Shown: one piece after another, positions 12,114 through 14,068 of the stretch
How the letters are laid out: each line of letters starts with the position of its first letter
Numbering within the stretch: position 1 is the stretch's first letter
Assembly: GCF_003334785.1 (NCBI RefSeq)
Contig: NZ_QOWV01000006.1
DNA from: Escherichia coli
GTDB taxonomy: Bacteria; Pseudomonadota; Gammaproteobacteria; Enterobacterales; Enterobacteriaceae
Strand: one strand, 5' to 3'
DNA: 64,000 nucleotides
Made by a program: the position numbers and the translations under genes
Notes under the pieces: model-generated
Database searches by the model: none
The model's input: only the letters and a program-made list of their open reading frames with translations
Told to the model about the DNA's origin: nothing

Positions 12114-13046
12114 ATGTGGTCAGAATATTCACTCGAAGTTGTTGATGCGGTAGCGCGTAATGGTAGTTTTAGCGCTGCGGCACAGGAGCTGCATCGCGTT
12201 CCTTCTGCGGTCAGCTATACCGTGCGTCAGCTGGAAGAGTGGCTGGCGGTGCCGCTCTTTGAACGACGGCACCGTGATGTGGAGCTGACCGCTGCTGGAG
12301 CGTGGTTTCTCAAAGAAGGGCGCTCTGTTGTCAAAAAAATGCAGATCACCCGCCAGCAATGTCAGCAGATAGCGAACGGCTGGCGCGGTCAGTTAGCTAT
12401 CGCAGTGGATAATATTGTCAGGCCAGAACGTACACGGCAGATGATCGTTGATTTTTATCGCCATTTTGATGATGTCGAACTTCTTGTCTTTCAGGAAGTG
12501 TTCAACGGTGTCTGGGATGCGCTTTCCGACGGGCGCGTGGAACTGGCGATTGGCGCAACACGCGCGATTCCGGTAGGCGGTCGTTATGCCTTCCGGGATA
12601 TGGGGATGCTAAGCTGGAGTTGCGTTGTTGCCAGTCACCACCCGCTGGCGTTGATGGATGGCCCGTTCAGCGATGATACGTTGCGCAACTGGCCGTCGTT
12701 GGTGCGCGAAGACACCTCGCGAACGCTACCTAAACGTATTACCTGGTTGCTGGATAACCAAAAAAGAGTTGTCGTGCCTGACTGGGAATCATCGGCAACC
12801 TGTATCTCGGCAGGATTATGCATAGGGATGGTGCCAACACATTTCGCCAAACCGTGGCTTAATGAGGGGAAGTGGGTAGCATTAGAACTGGAAAACCCCT
12901 TTCCGGATTCGGCATGTTGTCTGACATGGCAGCAAAATGATATGTCGCCTGCGTTAACCTGGTTGCTTGAGTATCTCGGCGATAGTGAGACGCTGAATAA
13001 GGAGTGGCTGCGGGAGCCGGAAGAGACTCCCGCAACGGGTGATTAA
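12114..13046 (+). CDS. punR: LysR-family transcriptional regulator PunR (YdhB)
   Basis: 310-aa ORF with N-terminal HTH ([25 protein letters not shown]); divergent from punC; stop overlaps the purR stop. Confidence 0.88.
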
Positions 13047-14068
13047 CGACGATAGTCGCGGAACGGGCCGTCAGCCACGGAGCGGCGTTCAATCAAGCGC
13101 GGATGCACTTCAATAGACTGCGGTTCTTCACGTTTGTTGACGATACGATCCAACAGCATGTTGAACGCTGTTTCACCCAGCGAATCTTTTGGCTGATGGA
13201 TCGTGGTCAGCGCCGGCGTAAAATAGCGCGCGTTGCGCACGTTATCATAACCGATCAGCGAAACATCCTGCGGGACGCGCAGGCCCATTTCATCAGCAGC
13301 ACAAAGTGCGCCCATTGCCATGATATCGCCACCACAGAAGACGGCAGTAGGGCGATGCGGCTGCGACAGGATTTGCTGCATGGCGCGATAACCGGATTCA
13401 GGTTCAAAGTCACCCTGCACAATCCAGCTTTCCGGCACCTTGATCATCGCTTCTTCCATCGCCTTCATAAAACCGGCAAGGCGGCCTGCGCCGGTGTTAC
13501 GTTCCAGCGGGCCGGGGATGACGCCGATTTCGCGGTGACCGCGTTCAATCAGATAACGCCCGGCCATGTAGCCGCCTTCGAACGCGTTATCAATGACCGC
13601 ATCGGTGAAGTCAGCTTTTGCTTCACCCCAGTCCATGACCACCATTGGGATATGGCGATACTCTTCCAGCATCGCCAGCAACGGCTCTGGGTACTCAGAA
13701 CACATCACCAGCAGACCATCGACGCGTTTTTGCGCCATCATCGACAGATAAGCCCGCTGTTTCTCAAGATTGTTCCACGCATTGCCCAGAATCAGGGTGT
13801 AACCTTTCTGGAAGCAATTTTTTTCAACTGCTTCAATGATCTCGGCAAAATAGGCCGCTTCGCTGCTGGTCGCCAGCAAACCGATAGACTTGGTGTGGTT
13901 AACCTTCAGGCTACGCGCCACCGCGCTAGGGGAGTAGTGTAATTCTTTAATCGCTGCCCACACGGCGTTGCGCGTTTCTTCAGCGACGAAACGTGTTTTG
14001 TTGATCACGTGTGACACAGTTGTAGTGGAAACGTTTGCTCGTTTCGCTACATCTTTTATTGTTGCCAT
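13043..14068 (-). CDS. purR: purine repressor PurR (LacI family)
   Basis: 341-aa ORF starting [28 protein letters not shown]; recognised as PurR. Confidence 0.97.

Follow-up and report, generated by a model that had tools for sequence, protein, structure and literature searches.

The 4-bp overlap of purR and punR in Escherichia coli and a conserved purR 3' stem-loop inside the punR coding sequence

Introduction

The genes of two regulators in related pathways, the purine repressor gene purR and the punC activator gene punR (ydhB), converge in Escherichia coli and run into each other at their stop codons. We examined this junction in a stretch of E. coli DNA of 64,000 nucleotides (referred to here as the window). 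The locus raises the question of what holds the two genes so close together, i.e., whether the overlapping stops are themselves a device that links a purine repressor to the regulator of a purine transporter, as had been proposed from the window alone (the original prediction), or whether some other element at the junction is the one that evolution has kept. Convergent overlaps are known to originate mainly from stop-codon mutations (Lillo and Krakauer 2007, PMC2174442). The tetramers TTAA, TTAG, CTAA, and CTAG let two convergent stops interlock, which gives rise to a jump at length 4 among such overlaps (PMC2174442).

Results

In the window, the punR coding sequence occupies positions 12114 to 13046 of the plus strand (310 codons and TAA, with the stop at 13044 to 13046; from the list of open reading frames, the profile match, and RefSeq). 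The purR coding sequence occupies positions 13043 to 14068 of the minus strand (341 codons and TAA, with a stop that is the reverse complement of 13043 to 13045). Common to both, on either strand, is the tetramer TTAA at 13043 to 13046 (T13043, T13044, A13045, and A13046) in the context GGG TGA TTA ACG ACG, where TTA is the complement of the purR stop and TAA is the punR stop. The two stop codons have two bases in common (13044 and 13045), and the coding sequences including their stops have four (13043 to 13046). The 3' terminus of purR is CGT CGT TAA (Arg-Arg-stop), and the punR TAA is composed of the purR stop and the third base of the last Arg codon of purR. Regarding gene identity, both proteins exceeded the cutoffs of their NCBIfam equivalog profiles (PunR, 527.9 bits versus 345; PurR, 711.1 bits versus 501), in agreement with the names given in the original prediction. 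Its coordinates and its 4-bp common region were likewise confirmed by the letters of the window, the open reading frames, and RefSeq. The RefSeq annotation of an identical E. coli chromosome (locus L001) contains the same 4-bp overlap (punR, 2415 to 3347; purR, 3344 to 4369) in the gene order cfa-punC-punR-purR-cydH(ynhF)-ydhP-sodB.

A frameshift, a sequencing error, or a mis-called stop could in principle mimic such an overlap, and the original prediction had named the first two as a concern. We searched complete E. coli genomes with a 57-nt megablast query centred on TTAA, for which any change in the tetramer leaves no 28-nt seed. The junction was recovered at full length in at least 5394 of 5426 genomes, and 4972 of the matches had ≥99% identity. 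Because this TTAA-sensitive query still matches nearly all of the genomes, the overlap is not a sequencing error. An artefact is also contradicted by the matching RefSeq annotation and by the full length of both proteins relative to their family profiles; we consider this reading refuted, with a probability close to nil. The purR/punR overlap is an already annotated, ordinary 4-bp convergent overlap of a known class: two real protein-coding genes lie tail to tail on opposite strands, with stops that are offset by one base within one of the four interlocking tetramers. In all 31 of the overlapping junctions described below, this tetramer was TTAA or TTAG.

To place the overlap among relatives, a PunR alignment was used to gather 80 loci from species-representative genomes, and 79 Enterobacteriaceae junctions, the window included, were scored. 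Since tblastn aligns across stop codons, the punR end of each locus was taken as the first in-frame stop and was compared with the purR stop. Eight further taxa were added through exact protein look-ups, resulting in 87 Enterobacterales junctions in all. The 4-bp overlap was present in 31 of these, with punR lengths of 304, 309, 310, and 314 codons, and in 47 of the 87 punR ended at codon 303 with a gap of 14 to 72 nt. Within the Enterobacteriaceae, the gap was -4 in 27 of 79 junctions (Escherichia, most Citrobacter, Salmonella enterica subsp. arizonae, Trabulsiella, Silvania, Leclercia, Pluralibacter gergoviae, and others), where punR had 310 codons; 0 to 5 in 6; 14 to 22 in 45 (Klebsiella, Raoultella, Enterobacter, Kluyvera, Kosakonia, Lelliottia, and others); and 45 in 1. 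In the last two groups, punR had 303 codons and ended in EWLREPE-stop. Most Klebsiella, Enterobacter, Kluyvera, Raoultella, and Kosakonia lacked the 4-bp overlap, and Citrobacter held both states. Four of the eight further taxa also had -4 (one with a PunR of 310 amino acids [aa]; Serratia ficaria, 314 aa; Erwinia sp., 304 aa, with TTAG as the tetramer; and Mangrovibacter, 309 aa). The remaining values were -13 (Serratia ureilytica), -138 (one Yersinia pseudotuberculosis record), +18 (Cronobacter), and +72 (Pantoea, with one hairpin for each gene). Conservation of the overlap, which had been put forward as a check, was thus not observed: it was found in a minority of junctions, it toggled within Citrobacter, and it came with differing punR lengths. 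The two genes were convergent in every Enterobacterales genome examined, from a 72-nt spacer to a 138-nt overlap, most pairs were no more than approximately 22 nt from touching, and all loci examined had the order cfa-punC-punR-purR-ynhF. What the Enterobacterales conserve is thus the close convergence of the two genes, among whose several states the 4-bp overlap is one that recurs.

The differences between these states lie at the end of punR. The PunR family profile covers residues 1 to 300 and ends there. In an alignment of 19 PunR proteins, conservation extended through EWL(R/S)E and was followed by tails of 0 to 19 residues. The E. coli tail (codons 304 to 310, ETPATGD; 13023 to 13043, plus strand) is outside the profile and varies among lineages, and it partly encodes one arm of a hairpin (ACT CCC GCA = T-P-A). 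Codon 304 (13023 to 13025, plus strand), which is GAG in E. coli, is a stop codon in most relatives. A stop (TAA, TAG, or TGA) was present at this codon, located in the loop of the hairpin, in 46 of 79 Enterobacteriaceae junctions. In most species this loop stop is 14 to 22 nt from the purR stop.

A second stop is supplied by purR itself. On the other strand, CGT CGT TAA reads TTA ACG ACG, and the complement of the third base of the Arg codon is A for CGT and G for CGC, so that punR meets a TAA or TAG in a register shifted by one base; almost every junction has the sequence TTAAC or TTAGC. TTAA is pre-set by the CGT-TAA of purR, and therefore any punR frame in that register must stop there (referred to here as the back-stop), so an in-frame punR cannot extend beyond a 4-bp overlap. 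The other two frames in E. coli meet a stop 0 or 74 nt into purR. Among the 33 species without a loop stop, 28 had punR in the back-stop frame and 27 of those end there (-4); in the other five, the punR stop was 0 to 3 nt before purR. Where the loop stop was present, the back-stop was in frame in only 13 of 46 species, near the chance value of one-third. The difference gave a Fisher p of 8e-7, uncorrected for phylogeny, on species counts that are not phylogenetically independent.

These counts suggest how the overlap may arise. Where the stop at codon 304 is missing, translation would continue through the other hairpin arm and a short spacer, and would then meet the first in-frame stop, i.e., the TAA or TAG formed by the complements of the purR stop and of the third base of its Arg codon. 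The residues of the punR tail would be set by the sequence of hairpin and spacer and not by PunR function. Loss of the loop stop appears to persist mainly where the back-stop limits the extension. That the stop was lost rather than gained is suggested by the wider distribution of the 303-codon form and not by a tree. The junction resembles the overlaps of Lillo and Krakauer (PMC2174442) both in having stops interlocked in TTAA and in the apparent sequence of a stop mutation followed by extension to the next stop. Nothing essential differs from that class. The next stop is here pre-set by the last codon and stop of purR, and the history can be traced species by species.

The hairpin in which the loop stop lies was present throughout. 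In E. coli, it is a stem-loop of the purR mRNA 3' untranslated region (UTR) (13007 to 13036, minus strand; 12 bp including 2 G.U pairs; -23.2 kcal/mol), with a 5' arm at 13036 to 13025, a loop of 6 nt at 13024 to 13019, and a 3' arm at 13018 to 13007. It starts 6 nt past the purR stop and lies within punR codons 298 to 308. Every junction contained a GC-rich inverted repeat beginning in punR codons 299 to 300, and its letters differed among genera: GGGAGCCAG-CGTAG-CTGGCTCCC in Enterobacter, with the punR stop in the loop; arms GGCGCCGG/CCGGCGCC in Klebsiella and Raoultella; GGACGCC/GGCGTCC and GGACACCC/GGGTGTCC in Kluyvera; and GGGTGCCGG/CCGGCACCC in Trabulsiella. Where the coding arm differs, a PunR residue is exchanged (among E, A, T, and V), and the opposite arm differs to match.

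To assess this pairing, a plain MAFFT alignment of the junctions, in which the second arm was out of register because loop and spacer lengths vary, was replaced by a covariance-model alignment. The model was built from 12 junction sequences and was used to align the rest, and 66 sequences entered the covariation analysis. The core helix was 94.8% paired, with changes on both sides in 7 of 9 pairs, in an alignment that was fitted to the structure of the model and therefore favours pairing. The covariation score was 0.213 versus 0.107 in shuffles (0 of 500 shuffles reached it), and pairing fell to 32 to 52% in a control in which the partner was slid by 1 to 3 columns. Compensatory types (A-U, C-G, U-A, and G.U at one position) were also plain in the raw sequences. 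Comparison of these junctions shows that their constant element is a GC-rich stem-loop with pairing kept by compensatory changes. A search of Rfam over 12700 to 13400 gave no match at the junction at the gathering threshold and only chance-level hits (E ≥ 0.41).

A palindromic element between convergent genes could serve either transcript. For E. coli, the purR-sense RNA folded at the energy given above with a z score of -5.7 (0 of 200 shuffles were as good), and the punR-sense RNA folded at -17.1 kcal/mol (z = -1.8), no better than its shuffles. As a strand test across species, the folding energy of the whole segment was discarded: the purR sense was more stable in only 29 of 78 species (means, -20.8 kcal/mol for purR and -21.4 kcal/mol for punR), i.e., there was no purR-sense preference. 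In many species the palindrome is perfect, and both strands fold. The wobble count in the core stem is the informative test, with equal numbers of possible sites for both kinds of transition. Across the six core pairs, 35 cells had G.U on the purR-sense strand (A.C on the punR sense) versus 1 cell for the reverse, and the G.U cases were spread over Escherichia, Citrobacter, Klebsiella, Kosakonia, and Enterobacter. Because G.U pairs favour the purR-sense strand by 35 to 1, this bias points to selection on the purR transcript. The hairpin would then serve chiefly to mark or protect the 3' end of the purR transcript; where the palindrome is perfect, it might act in the punR transcript as well.

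Published Term-seq data place a purR 3' end at this element. Adams et al. (2021, PMC7815308) list a "primary" 3' end of purR, also classed as antisense to ydhB, at MG1655 position 1738907 under one growth condition and at 1738908 under another. With the relation that window and MG1655 coordinates sum to 1751912, the published flanks (PMC7815308 supplementary file 1) give purR mRNA 3' ends at 13005 and 13004 (minus strand). These ends fall in punR codon 298, at 2 to 3 nt downstream of the stem base (13007) and 38 to 39 nt downstream of the purR stop. The purR 3' UTR of 38 to 39 nt is wholly antisense to the last 13 codons of punR (298 to 310), and the complementarity of the two mRNAs spans at least 42 nt (13004 to 13046). 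The punR stop lies inside the purR coding sequence, and therefore any punR 3' UTR is antisense to purR. The overlap of the two transcripts in the original prediction is thus supported by mapped data. No 3' end of ydhB/punR is listed in the Term-seq tables (PMC7815308 supplementary file 1). A candidate punR terminator inside purR (13166 to 13182, plus strand) was rejected, having a 5-bp stem that was kept in only 2 of 87 loci. The TERMITe and SMRT-Cappable-seq supplements contained no data on the purR 3' end.

One account of this end makes the hairpin an ordinary intrinsic (Rho-independent) terminator of purR. Its GC-rich stem of 12 bp is stable and begins 6 nt past the stop, the mapped 3' end comes shortly after it, the sequence beyond it is in part rich in U (CUCCUUAUUC), and of the 58 convergent overlaps in the E. 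coli annotation of Lillo and Krakauer, 19 have a terminator inside the coding sequence of the partner (PMC2174442). The purR stem-loop resembles those terminators in lying within punR codons 298 to 308 with the purR 3' end mapped next to it, but unlike their canonical members it lacks a U-tract: there was none within 0 to 2 nt of the stem, which is followed by CACUCCUUAUUC, and the consensus scan made no call. Of the features of a canonical intrinsic terminator, the stable GC-rich hairpin shortly after the stop is present and the U-tract immediately 3' of it is missing. The mapped end is also 2 to 3 nt past the stem and not inside a U-run. The bases past the stem are the complement of the invariant punR codons E-W-L, and so any U-run arising there would alter PunR. 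Overall, we regard a plain intrinsic terminator as unlikely. Since the hairpin lies in conserved punR codons (E-W-L-R-E-P), it cannot carry a U-tract, which makes a noncanonical route to the purR 3' end probable.

Such a route might be trimming back to the stem after termination further downstream; other candidates are weak hairpin-dependent termination or polymerase pausing combined with collision. Stem-loops are reported to protect processed 3' ends of Rho-terminated transcripts after exonuclease trimming (PMC6061677; summarised in PMC7815308). The purR end has the form of a trimmed Rho-dependent end, which lies 1 to 3 nt past a stem without a U-tract. Like the ends of Dar and Sorek (2018, PMC6061677), it is 2 to 3 nt past a stable stem with no U-tract, and the downstream transcript is richer in C than in G, moderately so (29% versus 20%). 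Unlike those ends, it has no bicyclomycin-sensitive region listed at its site in the supplementary data of PMC7815308. No Rho termination region is listed between approximately 1738800 and 1739599 (PMC7815308 supplementary file 2), which may reflect low expression. Whatever the mechanism of release, a stem-loop that defines or protects the purR 3' end is the top-ranked and most likely option.

The position of the element between two convergent genes calls for a further comparison. Among terminators of convergent E. coli genes, bidirectional ones that encode a hairpin, e.g., at ynaJ-uspE, have been described as neither intrinsic-like nor Rho-dependent (bioRxiv 10.1101/2022.10.23.513370). If the purR hairpin were one of them, polymerases would be paused from both sides and released by head-on and trailing collisions, which would link the termination of purR and punR. 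The element is a hairpin-encoding sequence, on both strands, exactly at the junction of a convergent pair. It has no U-tract in either direction, no Rho region is listed there, and most species combine a perfect palindrome with a punR stop in the loop. In these respects it is like the ynaJ-uspE class as summarised there, i.e., a hairpin at a convergent junction that is not intrinsic-like and carries no sign of Rho dependence. Membership of this class, however, predicts that both transcripts end at the element (Ju et al. 2019, as summarised in bioRxiv 10.1101/2022.10.23.513370), and at purR/punR the one mapped end is that of purR. The evolution of the sequence also favours purR-sense pairing, as measured by the wobble pairs, and in E. 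coli the element is located within translated punR sequence, where the punR-sense fold did not stand out from shuffles. On balance, a bidirectional terminator seems to us a possible but doubtful reading.

An extended form of this idea is that the stem-loop is a two-way 3'-end element common to both genes, such that the activity of one purine regulator gene sets the 3'-end formation of the other. In most Enterobacteriaceae, ribosomes finishing punR at the loop stop would open the structure at which the purR transcript ends or is protected, with polymerase collisions acting in addition; E. coli would depart from this pattern, its hairpin having been shifted entirely into the punR coding sequence. 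We consider this improbable.

Discussion

We conclude, with a probability of about 75%, that the 4-bp overlap is a by-product of stop turnover at a tight junction and that the conserved hairpin serves mainly the purR transcript. As a by-product, the TTAA overlap would not be a device in its own right. It carries little weight for biology at large, being part of the standard E. coli annotation and of a well-described class. The junction does show the stepwise origin of an overlap, in which the loop stop is lost and read-through proceeds to a back-stop made from the stop and last codon of the neighbour.

The original prediction assigned the overlap a possible role in coupling the expression of a purine repressor with that of the punC activator. 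Such coupling would act by antisense pairing of the 3' regions (RNase III cleavage or mutual stabilisation) or by transcriptional interference. The complementarity of the two mRNAs described above, the related pathways of the two regulators, and the gene order kept in all loci are what it could draw on. Antisense crosstalk of convergent genes is documented elsewhere (PMC10070815 and PMC7154746), and purR/punR resembles the excludon-type overlaps described there (PMC7154746; arfA-mscL, PMC10070815) in consisting of convergent genes with complementary 3' regions. The complementary stretch of purR/punR is only approximately 42 nt so far. Against coupling, the overlap itself is variable (31 of 87 junctions) and toggles within genera, and the Pantoea genes are separated by 72 nt with a hairpin each. 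Regulator genes such as purR and punR are, moreover, assumed to be weakly expressed. Among the papers found that name both genes, none takes up the overlap or mentions a coupling of their expression. When the window was scanned for PurR operators, no PurR box was present in the punC-punR intergenic region, and the sole match was the operator of purR itself (14113 to 14128). We have no evidence for or against coupling of PurR and PunR expression, see no present reason to invoke it, and judge it very improbable.

The target in that proposal also needs correction. The punC gene (ydhC; 10790 to 12001, minus strand), which is divergent from punR and is the target of PunR, had been labelled an exporter gene. 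PunC belongs by profile to the Bcr/CflA efflux-type family of the major facilitator superfamily (MFS), although the published work describes it as taking up purines and purine nucleosides under activation by PunR (PMC8376909), and the exporter label does not stand.

With the overlap explained as a probable by-product, the feature worth recording at this locus is the purR 3' stem-loop inside punR. The purR mRNA ends at a conserved stem-loop within the punR coding sequence, and punR codons 298 to 308 are therefore under a second, RNA-level constraint in addition to that on the protein. This constraint is relevant to the design of punR and purR deletions, tags, and synonymous recoding; a clean deletion of punR would take out the 3' end element of purR.

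PurR operator and RNA features around purR

The 64-kb window was scanned with the PurR operator consensus, allowing up to three mismatches. The sole match was AGGTAAACGTTTGCCT (14113-14128), located in the purR 5' UTR; this sequence is the known purR autoregulatory operator. At the same threshold (≤3 mismatches), no match to the consensus was detected in the punC-punR intergenic region (12002-12113).

Published Term-seq data, converted from MG1655 coordinates, place two additional 3' ends on the purR strand (PMC7815308). One, classified as "orphan" (MG1655 1737833; window 14079, -), precedes the start codon of purR by 11 nt, and the other, classified as "internal" (MG1655 1737952; window 13960, -), lies 108 nt into purR. 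Each is a short way downstream of a PurR-box-like sequence in the published flanks (PMC7815308). The two could be premature ends tied to purR autoregulation.

A full-length match to the Rfam family STnc550 (396.5 bits; 14069-14459, +) covers the small gene cydH/ynhF and begins at the base adjoining the purR start codon (the purR coding sequence ends at 14068). Given this position, an STnc550 RNA would lie opposite the 5' UTR and promoter region of purR, in antisense orientation. Elsewhere in the window, an Rfam match to the "antisense RNA" HPnc0260 (5196-5358, +) overlaps one of two tRNA genes on the minus strand (5323-5396 and 5404-5477).

punR-purR junctions in other Enterobacterales

In Yersinia pseudotuberculosis UHJB01000001.1 (locus L084, 2001-3131), punR was called at 376 aa; it has no stop ahead of purR and overlaps the coding sequence of that gene by 138 nt in antisense orientation. 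Here, purR ends in TGA and therefore supplies no back-stop for punR (i.e., a TAA or TAG on the punR strand built from the complement of the purR stop and the third base of the last Arg codon). The 376-aa punR may result from read-through peculiar to this strain, or the gene may have been called too long. This junction contains two separate hairpins. In Enterobacter sp. kpr-6 (L038, 3410-3460), a 45-nt spacer holding an additional inverted repeat (GCAGGCCTGC...GCAGGCC) lies between the two stops, the sole example of this type among the Enterobacteriaceae junctions sampled.

The punR of Erwinia sp. 9145 (L085, about 2870-2915) encodes 304 aa without the tail and overlaps purR by 4 bp (TTAG). At this junction it is instead the conserved punR codons for L-N-H-E-W-L-S that form the purR-sense hairpin, GCUGAGCCAU-UCAU-GGUUCAGC. 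This junction looks like another solution to the same punR-purR layout.
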